DNA of 61,619 bases, counting the filler. It is 6 parts of 6 records of this genome, joined end to end, with 100 filler letters (N's around TTAATTAATTAA, not from the genome) between each part and the next. Parts side by side here need not be neighbours in the genome. Positions count along the whole stretch, not along the records: positions 18,338 to 36,551 come from DRR723986_3404; 5 more parts are not named here. One strand, given 5' to 3'. The translations under genes and the position numbers were made by a program. The notes beneath the pieces were generated by a model, which saw nothing but the letters and a program-made list of their open reading frames with translations, searched no databases and was not told the origin of the DNA. Shown here in pieces: positions 8,055 to 61,619 of the stretch; positions within the stretch are counted from its first letter, which is position 1, and every line of letters begins with the position of its first letter.

Positions 8055-8154
8055 NNNNNNNNNNNNNNNNNNNNNNNNNNNNNNNNNNNNNNNNNNNNTT
8101 AATTAATTAANNNNNNNNNNNNNNNNNNNNNNNNNNNNNNNNNNNNNNNNNNNN
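8055..8154. other. artificial contig spacer; same spacer at 18238-18337, 36552-36651, 44026-44125, 56080-56179
   Basis: N-run, TTAATTAATTAA (stops in six frames), N-run; 100 nt each; composition changes across each. Confidence 0.98.
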
Positions 8155-17358: not shown

Positions 17359-18237
17359 ATGACCAAGCCAGAACATATCCGCATCTTCGACACCACCTTG
17401 CGTGACGGCGAACAATCGCCGGGCGCGTCCATGACCCATGGCGAGAAACTCGAACTCGCCGCCCTGATGGAAGACATGGGCGTCGATGTGATCGAAGCCG
17501 GTTTCCCCGCCGCCTCAGAAGGCGACTTTGCCTCCGTCAGCGAGATTGCCCGCCGCTCGAAAGAGGCCATTATCTGCGGCCTGTCCCGCTCGACCGAGAA
17601 GGACATCGAACGCTGCGGTGAAGCCGTACGCCACGCGGCGCGTCCGCGCATCCACACCTTCATCTCCACCAGCCCCGTGCACATGAAACACAAGCTGCAG
17701 ATGGGCCCGAACGCCGTGCTCGAAGCCGTGGGCCGGTCGGTGTCCCAGGCCCGCAACCTGGTCGAAGATGTCGAGTGGAGCGCAGAAGACGCGACCCGCA
17801 CCGAATTTGACTTCCTGTGCAAATGTATCGATGTCGCCATCCAGAGCGGCGCAACCACGATCAATATTCCGGACACGGTCGGCTATTCCCACCCGGACGA
17901 ATATGGCCGCCTGTTCAAGCGCCTGATCGAGAATGTCGCCAATTCGGATAAAGTGATCTGGTCGGCGCACTGCCACAATGACCTCGGCCTCGCCGTCGCA
18001 AACTCCATCAGCGCCGTCGCCAATGGCGCCCGCCAGGTGGAATGCGCGATCAACGGGCTCGGCGAACGGGCGGGCAATGCGGCGCTGGAAGAAGTCGTCA
18101 TGGCGCTGCGCGTCCGCCACGACACGCTGCCTTACACGACCAATGTGAAGAGCGAATACCTCTCGCGTGCCTCCGCCATGCTGAGCCGCATCACGGGCTT
18201 CCCGGTGCAGTACAACAAGGCCATCGTCGGCAAGAAC
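17359..18237 (+). CDS. leuA: 2-isopropylmalate synthase, 3' truncated
   Basis: IFDTTLRDGEQSPG, HCHNDLG, GERAGN. Confidence 0.97.
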
Positions 18238-18337
18238 NNNNNNNNNNNNNNNNNNNNNNNNNNNNNNNNNNNNNNNNNNNNTTAATTAATTAANNNNNNN
18301 NNNNNNNNNNNNNNNNNNNNNNNNNNNNNNNNNNNNN

Positions 18338-18367
18338 ACGAACGAACGAACGAACGAACGAACGAAC
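18338..18367. repeat. (AACG)n microsatellite at contig end
   Basis: About 7 tandem units; likely cause of the assembly break. Confidence 0.9.
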
Positions 18368-18476
18368 AAGTGCCCTGCTGCGCTGAACCTAACTTTGTCA
18401 ACCTCGCTGGGATGACTGTGTGCGCAGACGACCATCATGGCTGGCAATCTTGAACGCGGTCTGGAGCTCCAACAGG

Positions 18477-18544
18477 CGACCAATGCCTGCTTGGCCGCCC
18501 TCAGCTTGCCTAAGGGATCGGGCTATACCTTTAACTTACCTACC
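18477..18544 (-). ncRNA. 3' half of a group I intron (P8 3', J8/7, P7 3', P9), partner of the nad5 intron 5' half
   Basis: Minus strand reads GGTAGGTAAGTTA, AAGGTA, TAGCCC, GAT, hairpin CCCTTAG-GCAAG-CTGAGGG, then a second hairpin; first segment pairs with 33882-33893. Confidence 0.75.
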
Positions 18545-18774
18545 ATATAGACTTATGTCCGTCTGCCCGCTTAATGAGAGGGAGTGCGTTTACGTTTCCC
18601 CGTTGTCTGCAAGAACAAAGACCGCAGGAGCAGCTCCGCCGCAGCGTGGAGGAGGTGGAGCTGTGGTGTCGACCCCAAGGGCCTAACAGTTTGACACAAG
18701 CAGACAAACTTTTGGGTATGCCGAAAGGGAATACGGCTCCGCGAGCAAAAAACTTTAACGCGTTTTTTAAGACT

Positions 18775-18823
18775 TGTTCCACATTCCAGATCCCTCATTG
18801 GAAGGAATGGGGAATATGGAACA
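18775..18823. repeat. dispersed hairpin element, copy 1
   Basis: TTCCACATTCC...AAGGAATGGGGAAT...TGGAA, also at 31609 and 31772. Confidence 0.75.
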
Positions 18824-19768
18824 CACACGAAGGGTTCGTTTTTTTGCTTGTTTTCCCGCCCGCAGGAAGCAACACACATTGAAAAAGACCGCGGAACCCA
18901 CGAGCTACGGGGCGGCCCCCTGCGCTGGCACTTGAACAGAGTTTTGCTTTTTGGTTCAGCTTCTGACAATGTTGGGGCAAGGTTCATGAAATGTTGAACA
19001 AACAGCGAAGCAAAACACTCTCGCTCCCCCCGAAGAATTGGTACAATTTCACATTCCGCTTCTCGTTCTTCGAGAAAGGCATGGGCGACATTCGGGGTAT
19101 ATTGTTCGGGCAAGCAAAAGACCAGCAGTTATTGGCATGATGAAAAAAACTGGCCTCTTCCTATAGAAAGAGATACAAGCACTGTCTTTTTTTCGTAACC
19201 CCCCACGGGGTTTATATTCCGCCCTTCGGCTTCAGCATCCCGCTCTCCCGAGCGAGACGGGTTATCTGGAATGCACAACTCGTCATTGCCCCCGCCAGGG
19301 GCGGTTACGTCGCCCAAAATGCTTCCTCTGCCGGTGGGCCTTCGGGTCCTCCAGCCCCAACGGGCACCCCACATTCTTTGTTTTTCAGGTCAAACAAAAC
19401 AACGAACAATGGAATAAAAAGCGTAGCGGACGAATGGTTCCGCGCTTGTTGCTTTTGATCGACAGACAAATTTTTGTCCTGTCCACACGTTGAAGAAGAG
19501 CTGCGCTTGGGGTGTTTGCACGTTTTGCGCGCACCCCCTACACCTTCGGGCATCGTCAACGCCACCTTTTGCTTCGCCATTGGGAAGCAACGACAACTTC
19601 ACAATAACGGTCTGCCGAGGGTGAGAGTCTCTTGTTCCAGCTTGTCACGGAGGAGCAGCGAACAGCCAATGTTGAGCGACGTGTTTTGTGGTAATAATAA
19701 ATAATACGAAACAAGGACCTCATGTATTGGGTTAGCATTTGGGTTTTGTTCATGCTGATGACAATTGG

Positions 19769-19841
19769 TGAGGCATAGCCAAGCGGTTAAGGCAACGGTT
19801 TTTGATATCGTCATTCGTAGGTTCAAATCCTACTGTCTCAT
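19769..19841 (+). tRNA. trnQ: mitochondrial tRNA-Gln(TTG)
   Basis: Acceptor TGAGGCA/TGTCTCA; anticodon arm ACGGT-TT-TTG-AT-ATCGT. Confidence 0.92.
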
Positions 19842-19995
19842 ATTGCGCGAGCGAAGCGCGAACGATGACGCTTCTGGCGTTCGGAAGAGGTCAATCATCG
19901 TCTCCGCCGCCGAGTTGGTTTCCTTCAGAACGCGCATGTGTTGTCCTTGCCCTTGACTGGCTGCGTTGATCCCAAGTTCGAGGCATGTGAAAACA

Positions 19996-20080
19996 GGAGA
20001 AGTGGCTGAGCGGTTCAAGGCGATAACTTGCTACGTTATTGTATTTAAAAACATCGTGGGTTCAAATCCCACCTTCTCCG
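19996..20080 (+). tRNA. trnS: mitochondrial tRNA-Ser(GCT)
   Basis: GGAGAAG/CTTCTCC, long variable arm, anticodon GCT. Confidence 0.93.
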
Positions 20081-20235
20081 GCCACACGTGTTGCAATTGT
20101 GCTGAATTGTGTTTCAAATCGCAAGAATTTTTCAACATTTGCAAAAAACACACACCGATGATGACATCTTGAAAAAAAAATTTCGTACAAGACCAAGCAA
20201 AAACAGGACCAAGCACAACAAGTTCAAAAGCGCGG

Positions 20236-20649
20236 ATGCTTCGGCGGCAATTCTGTGCGGACACGAGCAAACAGGCCGACACTCTGCCGAAAATAGCCGT
20301 CTGCTTAGCATCATTTAAACCGATAAACCGAAAACGAGAGTTAGCAATGAATTTAGCAAGAGACCATAATTTACATATTGAGTCCACTGTGGATTTTAAA
20401 AAGAAAAATCAACTGTTGTTGTCAGTAATTGCTGGTCCTCATGTTCATAAAAAATCAAGAGATCAGTATAAAATGCAAATATACCGAGGACTTTTTGTCC
20501 TTGTGGTTAACACGAGAGAAGAGTATAAAAGATTTTTAACCTATAAAAAACAGTTATATAGATTGCAAGTTGATGAAGGAATGCAACTATCTTTTGCGTA
20601 TCTACGAGACGAGGTGTGTTGTCTTTCGTCCCGGTTTTGTTCAGCATAA
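20236..20649 (+). CDS. rps10: mitochondrial ribosomal protein S10; start may be 20158 under code 4
   Basis: GPHVHKKSRDQY signature. Confidence 0.85.
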   Translation: MLRRQFCADTSKQADTLPKIAVCLASFKPINRKRELAMNLARDHNLHIESTVDFKKKNQLLLSVIAGPHVHKKSRDQYKMQIYRGLFVLVVNTREEYKRFLTYKKQLYRLQVDEGMQLSFAYLRDEVCCLSSRFCSA

Positions 20650-20759
20650 CAGAAAGGCGGAGCACGAAACACACTCGGCAAAGCAAAATAACTCCACAAA
20701 GCTTTGCGGCACCTACACGGTTGACGTTGTGTATTGAATTTTGAAGGTTTTTGTAAGGC

Positions 20760-21210
20760 CTGCCTTTTGGAAAATTAAGCAAAACATCCGCCAAAAAGGG
20801 CGAAGCCAAAAGGTCGGCAAAAGGGCGAAGCCAATGTCCACATTTCCAAGTTAAAATTCGAAAAACGGCGGGCAACACAGTTAGCGTGTGTCGAGCCAGC
20901 AAACCCTCGTCTTTGCAGACAGACGAGGCTCGTGCGTTCGGTCCGGTTGTTCCTACGCAGTCACAAGAAAGACGAAAGCCAAAGCATCTTGTGCGGAAAC
21001 TGTGCTTGCAAACACTTTCGGGGATCCTTTGCCTCTGTGGCCTTGTTGACCCCTCGCTGTTGGGCGTGCATGTACACACCAACCTATCAGCCTTCGGAAT
21101 TTGCGCGGCCGCGCGCGGATTTAAGGCTCCCGCAAAACGAGACAAAACATGCCGGTCAGGTTTGAGTTTAATCTGAAAATCCTTCGTGGCTTGCTTACGT
21201 GCCGGCGGGA
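20760..21210 (+). pseudogene. probable highly degenerate rps12 relic
   Basis: Between rps10 and rps7; ordered faint matches QCP, RKPKHLVRKL, HTNL, and in another frame LKILRG. Confidence 0.4.
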
Positions 21211-21287
21211 TCTGCGACCTTCGACCGCGGGCGTCGCCGCCTTTTGTGGTGGTGGTGGTCGTAGAAGTGGTCGAAGCCGAAGGGCGG

Positions 21288-21314
21288 AACAACAACAACA
21301 ACAACAACAACAAC
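21288..21314. repeat. (AAC)9 microsatellite
   Basis: Directly visible; poly-Asn in the rps7 frame. Confidence 0.9.
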
Positions 21315-21647
21315 GACTGCTTACATTATCCTTCGGGATTTTGTTCTGTTGAACAACGTAAGCGAGGAATATGGAATAACGGCTGTCACCTTCGACGTCC
21401 AAACACGCGGTATCAGGGATCGATGGTTCAAAGATTCACCCCCTCCTTGTATTTTATATCCCAAGAACGCAAGGGCGCAGCCGCAAGGGGCGCTCTTGCA
21501 AGAAGACGGGCAGATACCGTTACAACAACTGCAGATTTTGGTTCAGACTCGGGTTTTGGGGCCAGCGTGTCGGCTCCTCCACGATTGTCTTTCCAAGACG
21601 CAGGATTCGTAGAATTGTCAGCACTTGTAGCACCTTCGCCCCAAAAT

Positions 21648-22118
21648 ATGGCTTCGACAGGAATCGAACGTGAAATTAGAGAAATTGTTAATAAATTCGT
21701 CAGTTGTCTGATGAAAAATGGAAATCAACCTGTAGCAAAAAAAATTTTGTATGACGCTTGCATGTTTATTAAAATGAGAGACGGAACAAAAACTTCGTGT
21801 AGCCACATGGGCATTAAATTTTTATACCAAGCGGTTCATAACGCAAGACCGCTTATCGAATGTTCACAAAAAGCTTCTGGATCCGCGGGTCGAAGCTTTA
21901 GAAGACGAAACATTAAACCGATTCCAATAACGTCGCACAGGGCAAACAGGCTCGCAATTAAATGAATAATTGAGGGTGCAAGCAAACGTCCGGAAAAAAC
22001 AATGGCTTTACGCCTATCTATAGCCTTGATGGATGCATATCAGGGGAAAGGTTACGCCATAAAAAAACGTGAGGAAACGCACTTGAGGTGCAAGGCTAAC
22101 CTCGCCGTAGCTGCATAA
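21648..22118 (+). CDS. rps7: mitochondrial ribosomal protein S7 (UGA=Trp); start uncertain
   Basis: KFVSCLMKNG..AKKI; LAIK-TGA-IIEGASKR..MALRL..AIKKREETH..AN. Confidence 0.92.
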
Positions 22119-22189
22119 CGGAAACGTAGAGCAGCGCTGTTTTGCTGCACCGCGACCGCGAGGCCAGCCAAAAAAAGCCACACACCAAA

Positions 22190-22723
22190 ATCGCTCGTTC
22201 TATTTGAAAAGGACCCTATATGCACAAAGCGCTGCTTCGAAAGGGCATGTATGAATTCATGATTGCAGAAATAACCCACAGGCCCAAAACCAATGTCGGT
22301 GACGATTCTGCGATAGCAGCTGCTCGTCCTCTAACTGAAGGGGACAAAAAACACACAAATTTTTTTGAAAGAAAAAGAGAGGGAAACCGATTGGCACATA
22401 TCCGGCGAAACTTTGGTTCAGACGAAAACGTCAGAACCAACTCCAAATCTGCGTCAGCAACACCCGCAAAAGGCGCTGGTCTTCGAGCGGCTTCCGCACT
22501 AAAGATCTGAACCCGGAATTCTGTGATACTTCCACACCTTTTAGGAAAAACACACTCCCTCAAAATATACAATGGTAAAAAATTCGTTTCAGTCGAAGAA
22601 CAACTTGGGCCTGCAGTCGCTCAAATTGTGGGTAGAAAAATTGGAGAGTTCAGTGTAACAAGAAAAATATCAAAAAGAACAAATGTTCGTGATAAGAAAA
22701 ACACGCGGGGAGGCCGGGCCTAA
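22190..22723 (+). CDS. rps19: mitochondrial ribosomal protein S19 with large insertion, ATC start
   Basis: ARSI-TGA-KGPY; KI-TGA-TRNSVILP; IYNGKKF; VGRKIGEFSVTRK. Confidence 0.9.
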
Positions 22724-23213
22724 TCGCCACACGCACGTGAATCCTCGACGCCCTTCGCTGACCCTTGTGTGTGAGGTTCTAAATTTGTACCATAACACGA
22801 AAACCACAACCACAAAAAGGGCTCGCGCTTACGCAATTCTCTACGAAAACGTCGCTCCAGCGTGAGCTTTCTGCGGTCAACGTTCCATTCCATGTCTCTC
22901 ATCAAAGGAACGTCCTGAGATGATAGATGTGTCACCGTCGTGGTTGGGCGCGGCGAAACAACATTGTCTCATGGGCCGATGGCATGGCGAAGGTTCTGCG
23001 CTCAACAAAATTGGATGAATTCAGCACAGAGGCTCTACACGGTTCGAAGGGGGGCTGAACCCGCAACACAGAGATGTCCGTGCTGTGTTGAACTAAGAGG
23101 GCAAGCCTGCGAATACGCTGCGCAAAGGTGTGTACCAAGACCCAAGGTTCACCCAAAACGTTTCTTGAACCGATCGGCTGTCTCCTTCAGCCGAAATAAC
23201 CTGTGAGCTTGAG

Positions 23214-23297
23214 GGATAGGTGGCTGAGTGGTTTAAGGCATCAGTTTTGAAAACTGACGTCAATATGACAACAAGAGTTCGAATCTCTTCCTATCCG
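23214..23297 (+). tRNA. trnS: mitochondrial tRNA-Ser(TGA)
   Basis: GGATAGG/CCTATCC, anticodon TGA, long variable arm. Confidence 0.93.
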
Positions 23298-23486
23298 TTT
23301 GTCTGTTGTTTTTTTGCCTCTTGCCCGCTTCGCGGTGGTGGTACAAATTGCTCGCTCCGAGCCGTACGAATGTTCGTTGTCTCTTTGCTTCGCAGCTTCG
23401 CCGCCCAGCCCTGTGGGGTTTTGCTTTGTGTCTTTGTGTTCCGCCTTTTCCGTCCCTCCCTTGCGTAGCAAGCCTTCAAAATCGGT

Positions 23487-23561
23487 GGTGGATATAGCTC
23501 AGTTGGTCAGAGCGATAGTCTGTGGATCTATAAGTCACGGGTTCGATCCCCGTTATTCGCC
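23487..23561 (+). tRNA. trnH: mitochondrial tRNA-His(GTG)
   Basis: Cloverleaf with G-1:C73, anticodon GTG. Confidence 0.9.
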
Positions 23562-23717
23562 TCCTTTTGCTTTTTTTGCCTGCAAGGCCCGCCTTCTTGA
23601 GCCAGCGGGGGTTTCGAGCCGGCTATACGTTTCCGCCTATTCAACAATGCCTCCAATCGAAAAAAGCGGCGGTGAGAGCAAAACCGCGCTCCATGGTTGC
23701 GTTTGCTTCACAATGGC

Positions 23718-23794
23718 GGGCTTATAGTTTAATTGGTTAGAACATACCGCTCATAACGGTAATGCTGCAGGTTCAAGTCCTGCTAAGCCCACCA
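23718..23794 (+). tRNA. trnI: mitochondrial tRNA with CAT anticodon, probably lysidine-type Ile
   Basis: GGGCTTATAGTTTAATTGG...TACCGCTCATAACGGT closely resembles plant/protist mitochondrial trnI(cau); followed by encoded CCA. Confidence 0.8.
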
Positions 23795-24053
23795 GGTCGA
23801 ACAAACATTCTTCGCTCTTTTGGCTGCTGGGATTCTCGCAAAATGAGACAATTTGCGGTTCGTCTACCTTTAGAAGGCCGTGCCCGTTCGCGCAGTGTGC
23901 AAGAGCTATACTGGAGCTGGAGCTTGGAGCTGGTCGTCAGGATTCCGGGCTCTGTTCCCCTGGATTGTTTGTTTCTGCCGGTTGGCTCTTTTTGGAGGGT
24001 GGGCCCGGTATCTGCAGCCCAAAAGAACAAACACTCCGCGGGCAATCAAGGAT

Positions 24054-24127
24054 GGATGTATAGCTCAGTTGGTTAGAGCATTTGACTTCTAATCAAAGAG
24101 TCTTGGGTTCAATTCCCAATACATTCA
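24054..24127 (+). tRNA. trnR: mitochondrial tRNA-Arg(TCT)
   Basis: Anticodon arm TTTGA-CT-TCT-AA-TCAAA. Confidence 0.92.
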
Positions 24128-24497
24128 GTTAATTGCCTTCGGAGAGCCCGAATCAAAACAGAATGCGCACCAAAAGACAAGGCTTTTGGTTGAACGATTT
24201 CACGCTTCTGACGGGCTTCTGCCGCCTGTTTGCCTTTTTCGACCGCTTCTCCGATTTCGGCTTCTTTCCCAGTTCAAGTGTTAGAATTCGACGACGAACC
24301 AACCCATCAAAGACAAACACCAAAAGGGCAAACTTCGCATATCATGGAAGCGACACTAGAGCCGGAGTCCCGTGCTGTGCGCGTGCTTCCGCTGTGTGTT
24401 TTCTTTGATTGCCCTTCGGCGGCTACGACGCGCCTTCTTTTTTGACCGCCGACTTTGCCCGATGCCACCGGTGGGCAAAACAGAAAAGCACCAAAGA

Positions 24498-25298
24498 ATG
24501 CATCTTGTGAGAATCAATTTAGAAAAGTCTTTCGATTATATACTTCGTCATGATACCGTATGTAAAAACAATTTTATAAATGTAATGCAAACACCAAGAG
24601 TACAAAATCTAAGTTTTAATATTGGTGTCGGAGATAAAGCAGTAACAGATCGAAAACAGGTAATACCCGCGCTATTTGCGTTGGAATTGGTCACTGGACA
24701 AAGACCTAACATAACAAGAGCTAGAAAATCAATAGACAAATTTGGGTTACGACGTCAAATGCCCATCGGCGCAAAGGTCACATCACGTGGTAAAAACATG
24801 TATAGCTTTCTCGGGGAGTGTATTAATCCGGTAACTAAAATGCCAATCCTAACGTCTGGCTATCTGCGAAACTTTTTCGGCACCGGCGTGAACGAAGGCG
24901 GAGCAAAAAGGGGCGGAGGAGGTGACGATCTCGGTTGCGAATCAGCACCTGGACTGATCACTGAAAATGCGTGGCAGACACATGCACCCGACTCTCTGCC
25001 GAATGCAACTGTGTGCGTCGGTAACGAGACCCAAAGTTTGTTATCTTTAACAAAGTTTGGACGCGTTGTTTGGGCTCAACATCACGGCTCGGAGAACAAG
25101 TTGAAGGGCAAAAAATCTTTGTGTGCGCCCGACTACGTAATGGATTCTGGAGCCGAGCACGGAAACACCGGCTCTGTTACCGTTGGAATCCCAGATTTGT
25201 TTGTGTTTAAATCTGTAGAAAGGCAGTACAGCAAATTTGATACCCTTTACGGCGCAGACCTCACTGTACGAATATTAAATTTATCCCCTTTAGGTTGA
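24498..25298 (+). CDS. rpl5: mitochondrial ribosomal protein L5 with about 100-aa insertion
   Basis: NVMQTPRV..NIGVG, LELVTGQRP..TRARKSIDKFGLR..PIGAKVT; C-terminal G..TVGIPDL..F. Confidence 0.93.
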   Translation: MHLVRINLEKSFDYILRHDTVCKNNFINVMQTPRVQNLSFNIGVGDKAVTDRKQVIPALFALELVTGQRPNITRARKSIDKFGLRRQMPIGAKVTSRGKNMYSFLGECINPVTKMPILTSGYLRNFFGTGVNEGGAKRGGGGDDLGCESAPGLITENAWQTHAPDSLPNATVCVGNETQSLLSLTKFGRVVWAQHHGSENKLKGKKSLCAPDYVMDSGAEHGNTGSVTVGIPDLFVFKSVERQYSKFDTLYGADLTVRILNLSPLG

Positions 25299-25666
25299 AC
25301 GCCTTTGCAGCACTTGGACGGATCGCATGCGCCTTGAACAACATTCCCAGTGTGTCAGCCTATTGGTGATGAGAAACTCCAAATTCTTTTACGCCAGGAA
25401 GCTTCCGTGTTAATCCACGGACATATTAGAAAAAAAGTTTCTAGCTCTTGAAACAATTTGCTCTCTGGAATCGCGTTACACACTTGGGGTGCGAACTTGC
25501 CGCCGAAAAAGGCGCAAAAGAACAATCCCTCTTAGACGTGGGCATAACGTAAGCAAAAGGAGTGCAGAATTTGGATATTCCACAAGCTGTCGGCTATGCA
25601 GAAGCGTGCATGTGTGCCGGGGTGCGGCATGGACGGAACACGCCCGAATGCGGAGCAAAGCACACG

Positions 25667-27023
25667 ATGAAACAGCATATACACTCAGAAAAATCAATCA
25701 AGTTACTTAAGCATTTTTTTTTGCGAATGAATGGAAAAAAACGAATGAACTCGGCTTTCGTGGACGAGACTTGTCATTCTGAAAATTTGTCGATAAACGC
25801 CGCGGTTAGGTGCAAAGAACCACAAAAAAGCTTGTCCCCAAGACGCTGAGCCGCTTGATTACGGGACAATCCAAGCACAAAAAAAAAAAAAAAAACAGAT
25901 AGGATTATTGTTTCTGAATCAAGGATTGGAATCAGATGATTTAATGAAAATGAGATCTCTTTTAAGAGGATCTGGCATAAATGTAAAAAAAATCCCATTA
26001 CGGTTGTGATCTCGCAGTCGGTCACAGAATAATTTAAATCGGGCCCCAAACCCGACTCAACACAAAAAAATGCTTGTGCACGGAGAAGCGCTGGGATTCT
26101 TTAGCGCCGCCGACGCTGAGGGAGCAAGTTTTTGCTCGGCAGACCCTTTTGTGGCATTTGCAGAGACTTCCGCACTATACCAACACTGAATCAATATAAT
26201 AGCTTTTCTTGCCAGTGTATCAACGACTGCGCCTGCGACGACGAACCATGGAGCCGCTGTTGTGTTTGAGTCTGCGACAGAATCAAAATCATCACGATCA
26301 CGATCACGATCACGACGACCTTCACGCGGTCAAGAACCCGTGACAGCGGGCACGCCACACGGAGTTTGAGCTCGTAGATACGACTGATTACACGTAGCAG
26401 AAAGCTTAACTGCCCAGAATGTGTCTGGATCTGTCGTTGTCGAAGAATTTCCAGGATTGCAGCCGCAGGATGTTTCTTCGTCCTTTGGCAGTTTGTTTTT
26501 TGCTGCGGATTTCTGTTCGCCGGAATATGACAACAACGCCGCTGTCTCAATCAAGGAGCATTCTTATGCTTCGCCTCTAAGACTTTTTGGACGAGCATCC
26601 CCGCCGGCTTGGGACAACGTTGCGTCTGGATCTCAAGGTTCTGCTCATCTCTGTTCGGCGGATGCCGAAAACCCTGCGGCTGCAACAAGTCTTGACGCGG
26701 CAAAACGGGCGCAGTTGTTGGCAGAGAAACAAAATCTTATTAATGATGGTGTACTTACTGTAATATCTCTGTTAAAAAAAAACAATTTACATTATATTGG
26801 TTCAATTGCAAGAAAAGATGGCGGTTCCTCCCCAAAAGTGGAGCAAGCCCCGCACACGTTCCTCTCCGACTTGGAAAATTCACAGTTATATTCCCCAAGG
26901 ACGCTCCAAGGCAACTCGCGATCTGCTTGAAAACGCCTGCTCGCGAGCGCGGGTACGTTCCTCTTTGATTTCGAGTTTTTGAGCTTAAGCGGCCCTAGAC
27001 TGAATTCTTTTGTCCGGCTTTAA
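25667..27023 (+). CDS. rpl10: probable mitochondrial ribosomal protein L10, greatly expanded, with apparent frameshift at an A17 run
   Basis: Code-4 frame open 25797-27023: GLLFLNQGLESDDLMKMRSLLRGSGINVKKI, LVHGEALGFF, LKKNNLHYIGSI; ATG 25667 is in another frame. Confidence 0.55.
26291..26314. repeat. (ATCACG)4 tandem repeat
   Basis: Encodes Ser-Arg repeats within the rpl10 insertion. Confidence 0.9.
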
Positions 27024-27264
27024 ATGGCCTCTCGGTTAACTGCGCGCCCCGAGTTCTGTTCCCCTGCTTGAAAGACACAAAGACCGGCATCGGGCTTTGC
27101 CGTTGTTGTTCTCACAGCCGAAGCCGCAGCCGACGAACAATGTTCAAGGGCGAAGCCAAAAACAAAAAGCTGGGACATTAGACAGTGCGCCTCAAAAATT
27201 CATCCCTGCCCCGCGGTCGGAATGTTTTGAGGCTTATTGAGCCTCAAAAATTCATCCCTAATAA

Positions 27265-27777
27265 ATGTTTCCCTCTATGCATAACTTTAACAGCAACTCC
27301 TACATCTTTAATTTTTTTTATAATTACGAATTAATCGTAATGCTTTGTTTCTTTTTTTTTTTGTTTTCTATGATTCTCTTAGAAAAAGGACAACTTGGGT
27401 CATACCTACAGGAACTCTCGATTGAAGCCAAATCGAAATTGTCTCGATATTTAGAAATTCGGTCAAGTATGATACAAGAACTGTCCCTTCATTTGGATCG
27501 TGCAATGTCAGAAATGAAACGTATCATTGTTTCATGCGACACTACTTCGCAGGACATCCTAGCCTCGCTACAATACGTAACACGGGAATCCTCTAACACA
27601 GACACTATGTTTCAGGTCGATCATCGTCTGAAGACGCTGACATTCCACACACAGTTTCTTTTGCTGGCGATGCAGCAACATTTTACACACGACCTGTTTG
27701 GTACATCAAGCAAATATAATTTAGTGTCAAAAAAAACTTTTTTCGTCGGAGACAAAGCAAAATTGGAATTGGTTTAG
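27265..27777 (+). CDS. atp4: ATP synthase subunit b (atp4/ymf39)
   Basis: 170 aa; [15 protein letters not shown] resembles the atp4 YNEE.IV..CF helix, then a long helical tail; adjacent to nad4L. Confidence 0.7.
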
Positions 27778-27944
27778 TCCAAGGAAGCCTCATCTTGGCG
27801 CGCCCTCCAAATGGACTGCACAAAATGGTCGGTTCCGCCGAAAGACGCCCTGCAATGCCGAAATCCTCGGTCGGAGAATGCGTGCAAAAAGGCACGCAGG
27901 CGCGCGCGCCCGCAAACAAAAGCAGCAAAGGTTCCACTCGGAAA

Positions 27945-28253
27945 ATGATTCTCGATATCATTCGATATGTCGCCGTTGCGGTAATCATTTATATACTTGG
28001 TATGTGTGGTATTGTTCTTGGTAGAAAAAACATAATCATTATGTTAATGTCTATTGAATTAATGCTGCTCGCGGTTAATTTAAATTTATTAATCTTTTCC
28101 GTATATATAGACGATTTGATCGGCCAATTTTTTGCATTACTTATTTTAACTGTGGCAGCCGCAGAATCTGCAATTGGTTTAGCCATCTTAGTGATATACT
28201 TTAGAATACGTGGAACAATATTAGTTCAATTTATACATTTTGTGAAAGGATAG
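27945..28253 (+). CDS. nad4L: NADH dehydrogenase subunit 4L
   Basis: [38 protein letters not shown]. Confidence 0.97.
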
Positions 28254-28319
28254 CAATCTTGCTCCGCTCCACAAGTTCGTCTTCGGCCGCAGGAAACCTT
28301 TGTGCCAAAGCAAGGAAGA

Positions 28320-29330
28320 ATGACATTTAATACACATTTAAGAGAAATAAAAATTCGGTTATCTTATATATTTTTGTTGTCTTTCCCTTGTACATTTGTA
28401 TGTTCGTATAGATTTTCCGAACAAATTTTTCGCCTTTTAGCAAAACCCCTGGAACATGCGTGACTGCTTAAGAGCCATCCTGGTTCAAAAGAAAGCGCAG
28501 CCGTCGAAGCATCATCAAGCTGAGGGATGCTCCGCCAGCCCGAAGGTGTACCCTGGCGATTGGCAACGGAAATTGGCAATGCTAACGACCTTGCTGCTAC
28601 GACGCCTTTTTGCCAAGAGGCGGGTACGTTCTGGGCAAGCGTCAACGGCGAAGAACCCCACACGGCGACGACGCAATGTAACACCACGCCGTTTCATTTT
28701 ATTTACACCGAATTAACCGAAGGCTTTTTTACATATTTTCGAGTTTCTCTGTACGTCACCCTCTACCTGCTGGTTTTTTTAACGGCTTACCAGGTGTGAC
28801 TGGCTATTAAACCTGGACTGTATTTTCATGAAAAGTCCTCACTCAAAGTGTTCATTGTGTTATGCATGCTTTTGTTTGTAACAAACGCTGCGATTACATA
28901 CTTTTGCATATTGCCTTCAGCTTGCAAGTTTTTTTTAAGTTTTTCTTCGACTGCGCCTGCGTCGACGACCAGCTCTTGCCCAGAAATGCTGGAGACCGCA
29001 GGCAGCAAACCTCAGATTCACTTGGAAGCACGTATTTATTCGTATGTGTCTTTTATTTTTGGTTTGTTTTTTTGATGTAATTTTATCTTTCAGTTTCCAG
29101 TTCTCGTCACGTTGGCGGTTAGGTTACGTTTGGTTGATGAAAACCTTATCATACGCAACAGAAGAGCGTCTTACGCCTGAGTTATAGCTTTAACTGGCCT
29201 GTCGGCTGCGGTAGACGCCGCAAGTCAACTTTTAATTGTTGCATGCATATTTTTTCTTTACGAGGTTACGGCCATTTTTATTTTGTTTAGCCACGAGGTA
29301 AGATCCCGCAGGCGTCTACTCACGACATAA
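28320..29330 (+). CDS. tatC: TatC/MttB (UGA=Trp) with two loop insertions
   Basis: HLREIKIRL, LAKPL, FIYTELTEGFFTY, YQV-TGA-..IKPGLY..E, FQFP, D..SQ. Confidence 0.9.
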
Positions 29331-29751
29331 CCTTTGAGGGGGGTTATTGACTGCGTCCTGCGTGCAACATTTTGCTTTTTTTCTGCACCAACTCTACGTT
29401 TGCTCGAGACCTTCACACACTCTGGCAGCCAAAAAGACGCCCTCGCTGGCCTTGTCTTTGGTTTAACCACAACAGCCGTTGCCGCAGCGTTTGCTGGTCT
29501 TTTGCCCAGTGTGAGTTGGTGCCGGCTGTTGGTCCCTTAGGGCCTTGGCGGGCACTGATTCTTCTATCGCGGGCTCGCCCGCGACGTTTTTTTGCTTCGC
29601 ATTGCTTTTGTCTGTTGTTTGTTTTTTGTTTTTGGTCCCGCAAACGCTCAAAGTCCGACACGATCTTGCTCCGCCCCGTTTAAACTGAGAATGCCCGTCA
29701 TATATATATATCTTAATCCAAATAGCGAGAGCATCCCGCAAAAAGGGAGAA

Positions 29752-31251
29752 ATTACTAAAATTTTCGAAAATTCTGCAAACATTCTTATATATACTATAT
29801 CTCTACCGATCTTAGGGATTTTACTTTTGTTGTTAACACCTAACACAACAACAGGTGGATACCTGCAGCATCAAATAGCATTTTTTACGTCACTTTTGGC
29901 CTGAATAGCCTCTATTTTTTTGTGAATACAGTTTGATAAACTAACCGCGAGCTTTCAGTTCGTGCATAAATTAGGGTGAATACCGTTCATAAATATAGAT
30001 TTATATGTAGGCCTTGACGGAATATCTCTGTTTTTTGTATTATTGACAACACTTTTGATCCCAATATGCATCTTAATTAGCAGAAATACAGTTAAGGTCT
30101 ATGTTAAAGAATATATGATTTGTTTTCTCTTTCTCGAGTTGCTCTTACTTCTTGTATTTTCAGTCTTGGACTTGATATTATTCTACATTTTTTTCGAGAG
30201 TATTCTAATACCGATGTTTATAATAATTGGAGTCTGAGGGTCGAGAGAACGAAAGATCGGAGCGGCGTATCAATTCTTTATCTATACACTTTTTGGTTCT
30301 GTGTTCTTCCTTATCGCAATTCTTGTTATTTACTTTGAAACAGGAACTACAGATATTAACTTGTTGCTAACGACGCATTTCCCATTTAATCGTCAAATAC
30401 TGCTGTGATTAGCATTTTGAGCATCTTTTGCAGTTAAAATCCCGGTTGTACCTGTACATACCTGATTACCGGAGGCTCACGTAGAAGCACCTACTGCGGG
30501 TTCTGTTATTTTAGCCGGAGTCTTATTAAAGCTTGGCGGGTATGGCCTGCTTCGTTTTTCGATACCGATGTTCCCTGAGGCGTCAATCTACTTTACACCG
30601 TTGGTTTATGTTATAAGTGTGGTCGCCGTGCTGTACGTGTCATTAACAACTTTGAGACAGGTGGACTTGAAAAAAATAATAGCATACTCTTCAGTCGCGC
30701 ACATGGCTTTTGTCACATTAGGTATTTTTACATACAACCTACAAGCAATTGAGGGTAGCATTTTACTTATGCTAAGTCACGGTGTTGTGTCGAGTGCCTT
30801 ATTTATGTGTGTTGGTGTTCTTTACGATCGACATAAAACTCGAGTAATAAAATATTACTCTGGTATGATTCAAGTCATGCCGCTCTTTATGACCCTTTTC
30901 CTCATTTTTTCTTTGGCAAATCTAAGCCTACCAACAACCGCAGGCTTCATCGGCGAATTTTTAGTTTTAGCAGGTTTATTTCAAATTAACAAAACAGTCT
31001 GTCTTTTAGCCGCAATTGGTATGGTTTTGGGTGCTGCGTATTCAATCTGGTTGTGAAATCGTATTGCATGTGGTAATTTAAAAATATATTTCATTAAACT
31101 ATTTGCTGACATTAATACCCGAGAAATTTACATATTCCTTCCTTTGGTGTTTTTGACGTTTTTTCTTGGAATTTATCCAGAGGTTATTCTGGACACGATC
31201 CATGTGTCTGTCAAAAATTTGATTGCGACCGCAATCCATTTTCATGTTTAG
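29752..31251 (+). CDS. nad4: NADH dehydrogenase subunit 4 (UGA=Trp), probable ATT start
   Basis: [49 protein letters not shown]; several TGA at conserved Trp sites. Confidence 0.97.
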
Positions 31252-31535
31252 CGGGAGGTTGGGTCTCGCCAAAGGATGCCAAAGTTTTTGCTTCGCAATT
31301 TGGGCCCAGGCTCTGAAAGATGGACGCCGCGTTATAGATTCTTCCCACGAAATTCATCGCGTGTTGAACCGTTGTCTCGGATCGTGCCTGGTTTAACCGA
31401 CGACAGCAACAACCAACCCACTCGCAGACACAGCAAAAGAATGGCGATCGCCGCCCACAAAATTGCGCAGGTTCAAACGTTTGCGCGCGCCACTTGGGGC
31501 ATCGCCCGTGTGGATGTTTCGTTCGGGGGGATAGA

Positions 31536-31609
31536 GGACTTATAGCTTAATAGGTTAGAGTGCACGCTTGATAAGCGTGATGTTGGCGGTTCAAGTCCGC
31601 CTAAGTCTA
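31536..31609 (+). tRNA. trnI: mitochondrial tRNA-Ile(GAT)
   Basis: Anticodon arm CACGC-TT-GAT-AA-GCGTG. Confidence 0.93.
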
Positions 31610-31656
31610 TTCCACATTCCACACCCCCTCAAGGAATGGGGAATGTAGAGTGGAAT
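31609..31656. repeat. dispersed hairpin element, copy 2
   Basis: ATTCCACATTCC...AAGGAATGGGGAATGTAGAGTGGAAT. Confidence 0.8.
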
Positions 31657-31692
31657 GTTAAGCAGTTGCAACCACAGGTCCCATAACACTTT

Positions 31693-31766
31693 GCTCCCTT
31701 CGTCTAGCCTGGTAAGGACACCGCTTTTTCGTAGCGATAACACGGGTTCAAATCCCGTAGGGAGTA
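31693..31766 (+). tRNA. trnE: mitochondrial tRNA-Glu(TTC)
   Basis: GCTCCCT/AGGGAGT, D arm GTCTAG..GGAC, anticodon TTC. Confidence 0.9.
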
Positions 31767-31771
31767 TGTCG

Positions 31772-31820
31772 TATTCCACATTCCATTTTCCCGAAGGAAT
31801 GGGGAATGTAGAGTGGAATA
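31772..31820. repeat. dispersed hairpin element, copy 3
   Basis: TATTCCACATTCC...AAGGAATGGGGAATGTAGAGTGGAATA. Confidence 0.8.
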
Positions 31821-32408
31821 AGGTTCAACGCCCCTTTTTGCACGCAGGGGGGGCACAAGAGCATTCACCATGTCGCACCTTTCGGCACACGACTTTTAGT
31901 TGAAACTTTTGCCGCTCGACACACAAAAAGCCGGGGCGCGCCCAACCCTTATGCCGAATAATGTTTCTGGATTCCAGCTAGCATTTAGACGTCGGTTAAA
32001 TCCAAGATCGCGTTTGGCTCGCGCTTAGGGACATCATACCCGAAGCGTGGAACGCGTGTCCCCGAAAACGGTGGGTTAGCAACACCATTTGGAGACATCA
32101 CAATTCCTGAGGCGTGTTAGGATCTACACCTGCACAAAGAGGGAGTGTGTTCAAGCAGCAACGTCTTCGACGGGCTTTCGGTCAGCACGCTGCCCGCTTG
32201 TGCCGATTGCGCCCCAAGGGGCGCCCTTTGGCATCTGAAAACTTTGAGTGCTACGTTCACGTTCTCGAGGGCGGTGTGGGGATGTCATTTCAGGGAGGAA
32301 GGCGGGCCCTTTGTAGGTCTCGGTACGGATAAACGCATCAAGGCCAAGGCCTTTAGGCCGGTTGATCCGCGGCGGAATCGAACAAACCGTCACATCAGAG
32401 AGCAAAAA

Positions 32409-33196
32409 ATGTATCTATTAATACCATTTTTACCCTTACTCGCCTTCTTTGTTGCCGCGACCTTTGGAAGATATATTGGGAGAAAGGGAAGTACAATTAT
32501 AACCACAACTTGCATTTTTTTAACTGCGGTGTTATCAACAATTGCTTTTTACGAAGTAGCTTTAACTGAAACAAATTGCTATGTTCAAGTGACCACATGA
32601 ATTGATTCCGCAATCTTACACGCTTCTTGAGGTTTTCTGTTTGATAGCTTGACAGTTATTATGTTAATTGTTGTAACTTATGTCTCCGCTGTTGTTCATT
32701 TGTATTCTATTGAATACATGGCACACGATCCACATATTCAACGATTTATGTCCTATTTGTCACTGTTTACCTTTTTTATGATTATTCTAGTAACTGCGGA
32801 TAACTTTATCCAAATGTTTATCGGCTGAGAGGGTGTTGGTTTAGCATCTTTTCTGTTAATAAACTTTTGAACTACCCGCTTACAAGCGAATAAAGCAGCA
32901 ATGAAAGCCTTAATTGTAAACCGTGTTGGGGATTTTGGATTAAGTTTAGGAATATTTGCAATTTTTTTTGTATTTGGTGCCGTAGACTATTCCACTGTCT
33001 TTGCCAGCGCAAGTGATTTGATTGGTTACAAATTCTTCTTTCTTCACATGGAGTTTGACGCTTTAACAGTAATCTGTTTGTTAATCTTTATCGGAGCTGT
33101 TGGTAAATCTGCTCAAATAGGATTACATACATGGTTACCTGATGCAATGGAAGGGCCAACACCTGTATCCGCTTTAATACACGCAGCCACTATGGT
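32409..33196 (+). CDS. nad5: NADH dehydrogenase subunit 5, exon 1 only
   Basis: [11 protein letters not shown] through [47 protein letters not shown], where homology stops. Confidence 0.96.
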
Positions 33197-33893
33197 ATCT
33201 ATTTCCTTGCCAAATCGCTTCTCGTCCCTTTTTGTCTGTGCTTTCGTTCCTGAGGATATGAATCTATGCGCTCGTTAGCTTTGGGCGTCCGAAGGAACAA
33301 TTGTCTAAGCAAACGCGCGAAGCGCGATAACGCAGCTTGTAAGCGAGGGGGTTTTGCCTGCGTAGACCCTAGCCAATGTTGAATTGTTCTCCCTGTTCGC
33401 GCTTATGGGCGCAAAAACACACATTGACAAGATGCCATTTCTCTGTTTTGCTTGAAGCAAAAGATCCTGCGAAGCGCGAAGCTTTTCGTCATCCGTTAGG
33501 GTCCCAGAGAGCTTTCTAACTCCATGCTGAAATAAGGCCCGCGACTCTTTGGGGCGATCGTTCTCACTCAAAGATCTGCGTGCTGTGTTTTGCACGCAAA
33601 AACAGGTCATACTCGTTCTGCGCAAGCGCAGCTTGCGCCCAAACCAAGTTTATCAGCAGGTTTCTTGTTGTCCCCTTTGTGTTGCACGTTGCGTTCCCTT
33701 TGGGCCTCCGGCACCTTCCGCTTTGCTCGGCTTCCCATCGTGGCATGCATTCGGGGTGCGTTTACGTCATAACCCCATCACAACCAAACAGGAAATGCTT
33801 CCGTCGCTCCTATTGTCAGGAGACCGTTTCCAGATCCAAAAGGGGCGCGAAAACATGAAATCTCAGAGACTACATGTTAGATAACTGCCTGCC
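33197..33893 (+). ncRNA. 5' half of a group I intron in nad5
   Basis: Exon ends in U; P1 TGGT/GCCA(33209); P3 TCTAAC(33515)/GTTAGA(33876); P ATGCTGAAAT(33524) with Q TATCAGCAGG(33651); P6 AGGTTTC/GAAATCT; R CTCAGAGACTACATG(33862). Confidence 0.85.
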
Positions 33894-34373
33894 GAAACCA
33901 AACAAGCACTCTTACATAAACCGATATGGCCGGTGATGAATTCCTGCCAGCCGTTTCCTCGGAATTTCGAACAATTATGACTACGGCTCCGTTTCTGCTT
34001 CCCGTGCTACGGGGAATTCCTGTCTTGGCTCCCGGTAGTTATACTCCAGTTTTAGGTGAAAAACTCAAGTTTAGGTGACCAACGGCACCACGTATCTCAG
34101 GGTAGAGAACCGGGTTCGAGCATGCGGGACCATTAGTCCCCTTGCTTACATATTCCACAAACATGACCCATTCCTTTTTGCTCTGTCAGAGTGTATCGAC
34201 TCTGCGTGTGTAATGCCGAAGGAAAACCCTCTAGGTGAGGTCTTGTTTGCCGTCCTTACGTTACCGCGCCCTCAGTTGGCTGTTTGTTTATGTCAAAGTC
34301 AAGGAGGACTCGGAGTCGGAACAAAAACCACCTAGGCTCGTACCCCCTTTTTTGTTCAGACCATGTTTGCACT

Positions 34374-34721
34374 ATGTGTGTGAGAATCCCCCTTCGAAAC
34401 ATTCCAAAATTCAATAAAGGTTCCATGTTAACCGTGACCTTAGTATATCGCGATGGTTTACAACAAAACGTGACAGGAATTTGTTTAAAAAAAAAAAATA
34501 GAGGATTCGATTCTGCTTTTGTGTTGGAATTCAAGGAAAAAGCCTCTTCGCCTGTTTCGCCGACGATGGGAGTTCGACCTGAACATACGCACGATTCGCA
34601 CGTTCAACCCGTTACAACGCGAGACCACAAAGCAGGTCAGGGAGGTGTCGCCGATGTTATACGTCAAGAGTTTCCGTTATATGCACCTTATATAAAGGGG
34701 ATCCGTGTGTTGATGCCATAA
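34374..34721 (+). CDS. rpl19: mitochondrial ribosomal protein L19 with insertion; start uncertain
   Basis: IPKFNKGS..V, TGICLKKKNRGFDSAF, QEFPLYAPYIKGI. Confidence 0.85.
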   Translation: MCVRIPLRNIPKFNKGSMLTVTLVYRDGLQQNVTGICLKKKNRGFDSAFVLEFKEKASSPVSPTMGVRPEHTHDSHVQPVTTRDHKAGQGGVADVIRQEFPLYAPYIKGIRVLMP

Positions 34722-34924
34722 GCCAGAAAGCCAGCCTCTTATCCTTCGGAGGTTGTTACCGTTCCGCCACCTCTTCGCGGGGCACTAGAATTTGGGGCCC
34801 TGACTGGCCCTCGAAATGGACACCCCCCGGTTAGCTTGGCGTGGGTTCCGCGCGTTTCAGATGCGGACAAACTTGTGAAATAGATAAACCTTAAATGACA
34901 TAGATTGACGGATTGTGTCTGTCG

Positions 34925-36551
34925 GCAGATAGCAATTCGAATGTATTTGATGGATGCCTTAGTATTGGAAAGAAGGACGTTTACAAAATCGAAAAGCCGC
35001 GATGAATTATTAAATTGTGAATCGTGGATTTCCGCGGGCAAAAACCGTTACAGTGGTGACGACAAGATCCACCTTTGGCAAACAAGCAAATCAAGTTCGC
35101 CGACACAAAGGGCCACACGGATCTTGTCATGAAAAACCAGGAGAATTGAAACATCTAAGTATCCTGTGGAAAAAAAATCAACCGAGATTCCACAAATAGT
35201 GGCGAGCGAACGTGGACTGAACTGGGCCTCAAAAAATCAACATCTTTGGGTCCCAAATGTGGCAAAGCCATGCTTCTCACGCAGAAATGTGCTGGAAAGC
35301 GCAGCCAAAGGAGGTGAAAGCCCTGTGCAGAAGAGAAGCAACAAAATGGGTCAGCATAGTAAAGCAGGGAACGATTTAACCTGTTTGAACATAGGGGTTT
35401 CACCCTCTAAAACCCAGGCAAAGCATATTTTCCAATAACTGATAGTGAACACAGTACCGTAAGGGAAAGGTGAAAAGAACCCAAAAAAGGGAGTGAAATA
35501 GAACCTAAAATCAAATATATACAAGCAACAGGAACTCGAAAACACAGACATAACCTTCAGGGTTTTCCTGCGGAACTGTTCAATTTCGAGTGACTGTGTA
35601 CCTTTTGCATAATGGGTCAGCGAGTTAATCAGCGTAGCAAGCTTAAGTCACTAACAAAGACACATGCGCAATTAATATAAACCAAGTTGCGTTGATTAGA
35701 CCCGAAACCGGGTGATCTAATCATGGACAGGTTGAAGATACAGTAAAATGTATTGGAGGACCGAACTCATGCATGTTGCAAAATGCTGGGATGATCTGTG
35801 ATTAGGGATGAAAGGTCAATCAAACCCGGAAATAGCTGGTTTTCCGTGAAAACTATTTAGGTAGTGCATGGTATGCAAACAGCATGGGTAGAGCTACTGG
35901 ATAGGTATCGGGTTGCACTGAGCTTTACTGAGCCAAACCAAACTCCGAATGCATGCTGCTGAACTGTCGGTGCGCTGCTTAGGCAGCGTTACGACGGTCG
36001 TAAACTATACCATAGACAGACTACGGGTGATAAGATCCGTGGTCGAGAGGGAAAAAGCCCAGATTGTATTCTAAGGTCCCTAAATAATAACTTAGTGGTG
36101 AAAGATATGGGAGAATTAAGACAATCAGAAGGTGGGCTTGGCTTTCCAGGCCCGAAAGCACCATGCGACGCTTTTAAACTCAACTTGATCCAATGAGCAG
36201 CTTACGCTGGTGTATACAATCCAACTATATGCGGGAAATCCTCGCCGTCTCTCTAGCGGCGTCAGGCAATCCGCAGGAAACCCCACATGTGCGACCAAGC
36301 CACCTTGTTCTTATTCTTCTTCTTCAAGTCAAAGAACAGCACGAGCTTGGCTCTGTGGCGGCGATTCCCCAACGACTATATGCTGGAGATCATCAAAGAT
36401 ACCTGCGGCCATGATCAAAATATAGTCTGTTCCGGTGCGTCAGCGTCGGTCACATGTTTTGGAATCGAAGCTCCGCAGGAAAACAAATCCAAAACCAACA
36501 TGTTACAACCATCCATATGTGGAAGCAGCCATCCTTTAAAGAAAGCGTAAT
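34925..36551 (+). rRNA. rnl: mitochondrial LSU rRNA, 5' part, intron-containing; start approximate
   Basis: TGGATGCCTT, GAATTGAAACATCTAAGTA, AGTACCGTAAGGGAAAGGTGAAAAG, GACCCGAAACCGGGTGATCTA, GAAGCAGCCATCCTTTAAAGAAAGCGTAAT. Confidence 0.96.
36139..36519 (+). ncRNA. cis-spliced group I intron in rnl, about E. coli position 1065, no ORF
   Basis: Splits GGGCT/TGGAAGCAGCC; terminal G; P1 GGGCT/GGCCC; P10 TTTCCA/TGGAAG; P ATGCGGGAAA, Q AATCCGCAGG, R CAACGACTATATG, S AAAATATAGTCT. Confidence 0.92.
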
Positions 36552-36651
36552 NNNNNNNNNNNNNNNNNNNNNNNNNNNNNNNNNNNNNNNNNNNNTTAAT
36601 TAATTAANNNNNNNNNNNNNNNNNNNNNNNNNNNNNNNNNNNNNNNNNNNN

Positions 36652-44025: not shown

Positions 44026-44384
44026 NNNNNNNNNNNNNNNNNNNNNNNNNNNNNNNNNNNNNNNNNNNNTTAATTAATTAANNNNNNNNNNNNNNNNNNN
44101 NNNNNNNNNNNNNNNNNNNNNNNNNCATCATCTTTCAACCTGTCAAACACTTTTGCGAAGAAATTTGTATTTTTCTGCAACACAGCAAAAGTGTGTTCCA
44201 ACCACCCCACAAGACGACGAAAACAAGCCCCTGACGCACAAGGATTTTTTTCTGAGTTGCACAAAAAACAGGCTCCCGAAGGAGCCCTGAAAATATTTCA
44301 TTTTTTTGACGCCCAAGCCCTTTAGAAGGAGCTTTGAACCCATTTAATTCCAATTTAATTCAAATTAATCTGAAAAATTCGGTC

Positions 44385-56079: not shown

Positions 56080-56243
56080 NNNNNNNNNNNNNNNNNNNNN
56101 NNNNNNNNNNNNNNNNNNNNNNNTTAATTAATTAANNNNNNNNNNNNNNNNNNNNNNNNNNNNNNNNNNNNNNNNNNNNCCCCGACCAACTTTCCAGCCA
56201 CAAAACGGAACGTTGGTAGGAGCCGATTCAGGTAGCTCGTGAT

Positions 56244-61560: not shown

Positions 61561-61619
61561 GGGCGGTCCCCTCGCAACGATAGGTAGTGAACCCCGCCAG
61601 GCCCGGAAGGGAGCAACGG
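61561..61619 (+). ncRNA. ffs: SRP 4.5S RNA, 3' truncated
   Basis: Conserved domain IV GCCAGGCCCGGAAGGGAGCAAC. Confidence 0.9.

Follow-up and report, generated by a model that had tools for sequence, protein, structure and literature searches.

The trans-spliced nad5 group I intron of Marophrys mitochondria and four environmental relatives carrying nad5 exon 2 alone

The nad5 locus and the two intron parts

The 61,619-base stretch analyzed here (the window) consists of six contigs, separated by ten runs of N that form five N44-TTAATTAATTAA-N44 spacers. Because these contigs were joined, distances measured across the spacers carry no meaning. Both halves of the element under study, a group I intron interrupting the mitochondrial gene nad5, are located on a single mitochondrial contig of 18,214 bp (18338-36551). 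It has a GC content of ~45%, reads TGA as Trp, and encodes tRNAs, rps10, rps7, rps19, rpl5, nad4L, tatC, nad4, nad5, and the start of rnl. From 19768 to 33196 the genes follow each other in an unbroken order on a single strand. The left contig end (18338-18367) is an (ACGA)7.5 repeat, which a preliminary description of this DNA referred to as an (AACG)n break. The other five contigs are high-GC and bacterial by composition and open reading frame (ORF) pattern.

Over 262 residues, the product of nad5 exon 1 and NAD5 of Marophrys sp. SRT127 (P0001, 711 amino acids [aa]) show 100% identity, and all remaining matches listed for exon 1 share at most 83%. Similarly, the translations of seven of nine further ORFs of the contig, including poorly conserved ones, correspond to exact nr/UniRef entries; for the two others, the annotated start may be different. 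The reading of TGA as Trp and the GC content agree with the published Marophrys mitochondrial DNA (mtDNA), a 113,062-bp circle closed by PCR with 44.7% GC and UGA = Trp (GenBank AP019310; Nishimura et al. 2019, Sci Rep 9:4850, PMC6425028). In that genome, nad5 is described as two parts, nad5_a and nad5_b, located at distant loci on different strands. At the level of protein comparison, the contig can be identified as Marophrys sp. SRT127 mtDNA or as a molecule identical to it at every protein checked.

The NAD5 match of the nad5 reading frame ends at ...HAATMV, and tblastn covers aa 1-264. Pfam recognizes Proton_antipo_N and positions 1-129 of the 294 of Proton_antipo_M in this first exon. Beyond HAATMV, the full Marophrys protein reads TAGVFLIVRC, which is the V-T-A-G continuation predicted in the preliminary description. 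No match to nad5 exon 2 was found by tblastn anywhere in the window; the one hit besides exon 1 was the paralogue nad4 (22% identity). Downstream of exon 1, an R element and the 5' strand of P8 are found in close succession (table 1). R and S elements were called against the group I consensus sequences. No S-like element is present on the plus strand between R at 33864 and the S element of the rnl intron at 36417. Three ORFs of this region, 33405-33884 (+), 33305-33610 (−), and 33745-34038 (+), match no Pfam family.

The missing intron elements were found near the left end of the contig on the minus strand. There, GGTAGGTAAGTTA pairs with TAACTGCCTGCC in a 12-bp P8 duplex that includes two G-U pairs and a single bulged A (−13.8 kcal/mol, RNAduplex), and is followed at once by J8/7 and P7', AAGGTATAGCCC, and by a candidate P9 hairpin. 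By hand, P7 can be drawn as CUA/UAG, an A.C mismatch, a G-C pair, a bulged A, and a G-C pair; RNAcofold does not choose P7. The terminal guanosine of the intron (omega-G) and exon 2 lie past the (ACGA)n contig end. As exon 1 is carried by the plus strand and the 3' intron half by the minus strand of one contig, the two loci cannot share one transcript.

The P8 duplex on its own is not remarkable, as 74 of the 36,355 16-nucleotide (nt) windows of the contig reach −14.6 kcal/mol; its conjunction with an orphan S-like element is. Both strands of the contig hold only three S-like sites (up to two mismatches), one of which belongs to the rnl intron (36129-36449, S-like element at 36417). No 5' intron part accompanies the site at 18531 (−), which adjoins the complement of the sequence that follows the orphan R element. 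The chance that a window abutting one of the three sites would pair so well is ~0.2%, and a single shuffle of the 16-mer out of 2,000 reached the observed energy.

These data bear out most of the anatomy given in the preliminary description: the end of nad5 at ...HAATMV (ATG GT, 33196), the P8 pairing between 33882-33893 (+) and 18544-18532 (−), the immediate succession of P8', J8/7 with P7', and a hairpin, and the lack of an S element or exon 2 before rpl19 and rnl. Within the group I core that it placed after exon 1, the R element was recovered; P1, P3, P4, and P6 were not confirmed independently.

The public sequencing runs compared with the contig yielded no splice-junction evidence for Marophrys nad5. 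A loose end at 33197 in an RNA run (ACTGCAGGTGTT...) belongs to a sequence that matches the present contig over just 63 nt, with five differences; it therefore represents the nad5 of another organism and was discarded as evidence of splicing. One contig of an RNA library spans 33374-33977 with 15 differences and 24 gap letters, which shows only that a relative has this region.

Table 1. Coordinates of the nad5 intron elements, their surroundings, and related loci
Feature	Position	Strand	Remarks
Remaining 3' intron tail to contig end	18338-18497	−	Ends in (ACGA)7.5; no nad5 exon 2 frame
Candidate P9 hairpin, CCCTTAG-GCAAG-CTGAGGG	18498-18516	−	7 bp, GCAAG loop; read by eye
J8/7 and P7' (S element), AAGGTATAGCCC	18520-18531	−	Abuts P8'; two mismatches to the consensus
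P8 3' strand (P8'), GGTAGGTAAGTTA	18532-18544	−	Duplex with 33882-33893
Spacer between 3' intron half (−) and trnQ (+, at 19768)	18545-19767		~1.2 kb; ORFs without Pfam family
nad5 exon 1 (nad5_a)	32409-33196	+	aa 1-263 and two bases of Val264; last bases ATG GT (phase 2)
5' half of group I intron, at least to the 5' strand of P8	33197-33893	+	No ORF with a Pfam match
R element, CAGAGACTACA (P7 5' strand and start of P3')	33864-33874	+	Exact; sole match in the contig, both strands
P8 5' strand, TAACTGCCTGCC	33882-33893	+	Directly after GTTAGA
N44-TTAATTAATTAA-N44 spacers	8055-8154, 18238-18337, 36552-36651, 44026-44125, 56080-56179		
nad5 exon 2 alone, environmental contigs	L137:6816-8845, L081:4220-8372, L002:2480-3777, L003:400-1964		S element and terminal G upstream

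Environmental relatives with a split nad5

Scans of metagenome and genome contigs with the exon 2 protein identified 160 loci, 131 of which were kept (best tblastn segment at least 45% identical to P0001) and 29 dropped. Most of the retained loci (120) also have an N-terminal part. Three (L137, L081, and L002) encode exon 2 alone and extend 900 nt or more upstream of it, and eight are unclear, mostly because they are cut by a contig end. The latter include L003, whose upstream sequence measures 590 nt. The metagenome and genome contigs yielded no nad5_b identical to that of Marophrys, the relatives reaching at most 82% identity, and a nad5_b protein scan of viral contigs returned nothing. An exact search of the genome contigs and viral contigs with the 52-nt 3' module of the Marophrys contig gave no match either.

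Exon 2 of the four environmental relatives L137, L081, L002, and L003 shares 62-82% identity with Marophrys NAD5, and the tblastn match of P0001 begins at aa 262-264 in each of them. No exon 1 was detected in up to 7.6 kb upstream of exon 2. In all four, a motif AAAGG(T/A)(A/T)TAGTCC is found 24 to ~240 nt upstream of exon 2 and can be aligned with the module at 18.5 kb of the window. The S core is invariant across the five aligned sequences save for one T/C difference: P7' (18520-18525, −) reads TAGCCC here and TAGTCC in the four relatives. Assuming the Marophrys splice phase, the base preceding exon 2 is a G in every relative.

Two of these relatives are colinear with the window, over 10 (L081) or 14 (L137) genes. 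On the strand opposite to nad5_b, both carry trnQ-trnS(gct)-rps10-rps7-rps19-trnS(tga)-trnH-trnM-trnK-rpl5 in the order observed here, and L137 continues with orf359-orf170-nad4L-tatC, reproducing the order of 19768-29327. In both, nad5_b divergently adjoins trnQ, precisely where the present contig breaks off. The spacer between trnQ and the 3' module measures ~650 nt in L137, ~2.7 kb in L081, and ~1.2 kb here; the latter (18545-19767) is presumably the divergent promoter region of the nad5_b precursor. This synteny, together with the homology of the module, therefore puts nad5_b on the minus strand immediately to the left of 18338, where the preliminary description had expected exon 2.

The L137 and L081 contigs have been binned in bacterial metagenome-assembled genomes, in which a search for exon 1 retrieved only bacterial nuoL and its paralogues. 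The spacer from trnQ to exon 2 in L081 (4300-7190) is ~2.9 kb long, very GC-rich, and laden with palindromes, unlike the spacer of the window and the AT-rich spacers of L002 and L003.

The four environmental relatives, which combine an isolated nad5 exon 2 with a shared S element and a G immediately upstream of the exon, are the new observation of this study, albeit a modest one. The same split in uncultured relatives indicates that the arrangement is conserved and not a recent accident. A nad5 gene split by a group I intron broken in L8 is probably old and stably inherited in a wider clade, presumably the centrohelids, as judged from these sequences. Pairing the P8 5' strand of the present intron with the P8' regions of the relatives was set aside as not meaningful, since no 5' half of a relative was recovered. 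Once found, the 5' flanks of the relatives would permit a real covariation test of the intermolecular helices. If the interpretation of these loci is true, no earlier trans-spliced group I intron outside plants would have had relatives enough for such a test of P7 and P8 in trans.

A bipartite group I intron with its break in L8

The present intron is the trans-spliced nad5 intron of Marophrys published in 2019. The organism is the same by sequence, as is the gene; the exons are on different strands and P7 and P8 form in trans. Only the 5' locus and an initial 207 nt of the 3' half are contained in the window and, compared by description, no difference from the Marophrys SRT127 intron is demonstrable. 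Nishimura et al. (2019) assigned this intron to group I by RNAweasel and manual work, reporting P3, P4, and P6 as well as P7 and P8 formed between the transcripts. Reverse transcription PCR (RT-PCR) with one primer per nad5 locus gave a product from cDNA and none from genomic DNA (PMC6425028). The case was published as the first group I trans-splicing in nad5, and a limited literature search found no later paper on such trans-splicing in centrohelids.

The two-piece ribozyme proposed in the preliminary description, assembled through P8 and P7 from halves on opposite strands with a break in L8, agrees with this published model (PMC6425028). The reading was correct and already known. The preliminary description listed Marophrys among the known cases and did not recognize the sequence as Marophrys. 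As the structure, the arrangement on opposite strands, and the joined mRNA had all been published for the same organism (PMC6425028), the finding itself matters little; it does show that the published model was correctly rebuilt from raw sequence alone.

According to this model, nad5 is expressed from two loci that lie on opposite strands and are transcribed separately. The transcript of nad5_a comprises exon 1 and the 5' intron part, extending through the 5' strand of P7 (R) and P3' to the 5' strand of P8. That of nad5_b would start within 18545-19767 on the minus strand and carry P8', J8/7, P7' (S), P9, and a >180-nt tail, followed by exon 2 past the contig end. The two RNAs would dock through the 12-bp P8 and P7, which would rebuild the guanosine-binding core, and the two usual transesterifications would then join the exons as in cis. 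Bipartite group I introns are usually broken in L8 (Pombert et al. 2013, PMC3873408). The anatomy, the Marophrys identity, and the agreement of the 3' module with the nad5_b flanks of relatives, by homology and by synteny, are observed here, and the ligated mRNA was observed by RT-PCR by others (PMC6425028); we infer the transcript ends, self-splicing or protein help, and P1 and P3-P6.

We are highly confident that the two halves of nad5 are brought together by a bipartite group I intron, as in the model published for Marophrys. Several observations nevertheless weigh against it. The preliminary description had suggested an Infernal search with a group I model; run on each half separately, the Rfam model Intron_gpI (RF00028) gave no hit at E<=10 for 33185-33896 or 18338-18546, even as truncated ends. 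The same model does detect the rnl intron at 36129-36449. The minimum free energy fold of 33500-33882 contains no canonical P3-P6 core. Exon 1 ends with a U at 33196, and the candidates for the P1 guide sequence, GCCAT at 33435 and GTCAT at 33489, are only 5 nt long. P7 includes an A.C mismatch (R GACUA vs. S UAGCC), unlike in the four relatives, which have the canonical U. About a dozen separate sites of the contig pair with the P8 12-mer equally well or better by energy. Finally, exon 2 and the 3' splice site are outside the window, so that nad5_b is linked to the module through synteny, homology, and the published work.

The last two points would also fit a module at 18.5 kb that belongs to a different intron as its 3' part, or is a degenerate intron relic, and pairs with the 5' half by chance, with the real nad5_b elsewhere in the genome. 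The Marophrys mtDNA contains 19 other group I introns (Table 1 of PMC6425028). However, the module can be aligned with the sequence preceding nad5 exon 2 in all four relatives with a split nad5, it occupies the same syntenic place beside trnQ as in L137 and L081, and neither a 5' intron part nor an exon of another gene is found upstream of it on the minus strand. We regard this explanation as very unlikely.

An assembly artefact, whether an inversion or a chimeric join, of a nad5 that is in reality cis-spliced or uninterrupted appears slightly less probable still. In its favor, the window combines contigs of more than one organism, and a microsatellite forms the end of the contig. Of the four sequencing runs compared, all consisting of metagenome contigs, the best DNA run leaves 18338-18945 uncovered, and nothing extends past the contig end. 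Against this, L137 and L081, which are independent assemblies, show the same divergent layout, with nad5_b by trnQ and ribosomal protein genes. A misassembly by inversion, raised in the preliminary description, is thus argued against because three independent assemblies agree. In addition, the gene order of 19768-33196 is unbroken on one strand, and the Marophrys genome was closed by PCR, with no genomic product from nad5_a/nad5_b primers (PMC6425028).

Least credible of all is the joining of the exons by back-splicing of a permuted single transcript: it is described for the mushroom coral intron ND5-717, located just 41 nt upstream in the same gene and with genes inside P8 (PMC6545197), but it requires both exons on one strand. 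The opposite strands of the two halves therefore exclude ND5-717-type back-splicing as well as cis-splicing, the latter as stated in the preliminary description.

The bipartite intron of Marophrys nad5 can be compared with other split or nad5 introns. Like it, the cox1 introns of Trichoplax, Helicosporidium, and Gigaspora and rnl intron 1 of Prasinoderma form two-piece ribozymes with a break in L8 (PMC3873408). Pieces of the bipartite introns described there can likewise sit on opposite strands, whereas their host genes are cox1 or rnl and not nad5. For the present intron, no cis-spliced orthologue with an ORF in L8 was found here, and Pfam searches of the adjoining ORFs revealed no homing-endonuclease remnant beside either break. 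The hexacoral ND5-717 is also a group I intron of nad5, with a hugely expanded P8 (PMC6545197), and in mushroom corals its exons are likewise not joined by ordinary cis-splicing. In contrast to the present intron, its exons are on one strand and are joined by back-splicing, its last base is A instead of G, and its insertion is in phase 0 and not phase 2 (PMC6545197). The ND5-717 site corresponds to G|PT within AMEG|PT, with a ligation site AGGGU/CCAACU in corals (PMC6545197). As the window has 13 codons and GT beyond it, the distance of 41 nt fits the position, downstream of ND5-717 after AMEG, given in the preliminary description.

Other features of the window

Among the bacterial-looking contigs beside the mitochondrial one, the end of a leuA-like ORF is found at 18237 and a signal recognition particle RNA at 61561. 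On the mitochondrial contig, the rnl intron at 36129-36449 (+) is a complete group I intron (Rfam RF00028, 41.7 bits for a gathering score of 50, E 8.8e-08) and probably corresponds to one of the small introns in rnl that the published Marophrys genome contains. The 143-aa ORF at 34290-34721 (+), designated rpl19 in the preliminary description, has a weak Pfam match to Ribosomal_L19 (20.5 bits for a cut-off of 22, E 4.9e-4), and its protein is an exact entry in nr/UniRef.

ARAGORN assigns the tRNA at 24053-24128 (+) to Arg(tct). Compared with tRNA-Lys(ttt), its syntenic counterpart in L137 and L081, it has a mean column identity of 92% and differs at the middle anticodon base. A tRNA for AAR (Lys) was not found in the Marophrys mtDNA according to its description (PMC6425028). 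The tRNA at 24053-24128 could be a remolded trnK, or its anticodon could be edited.

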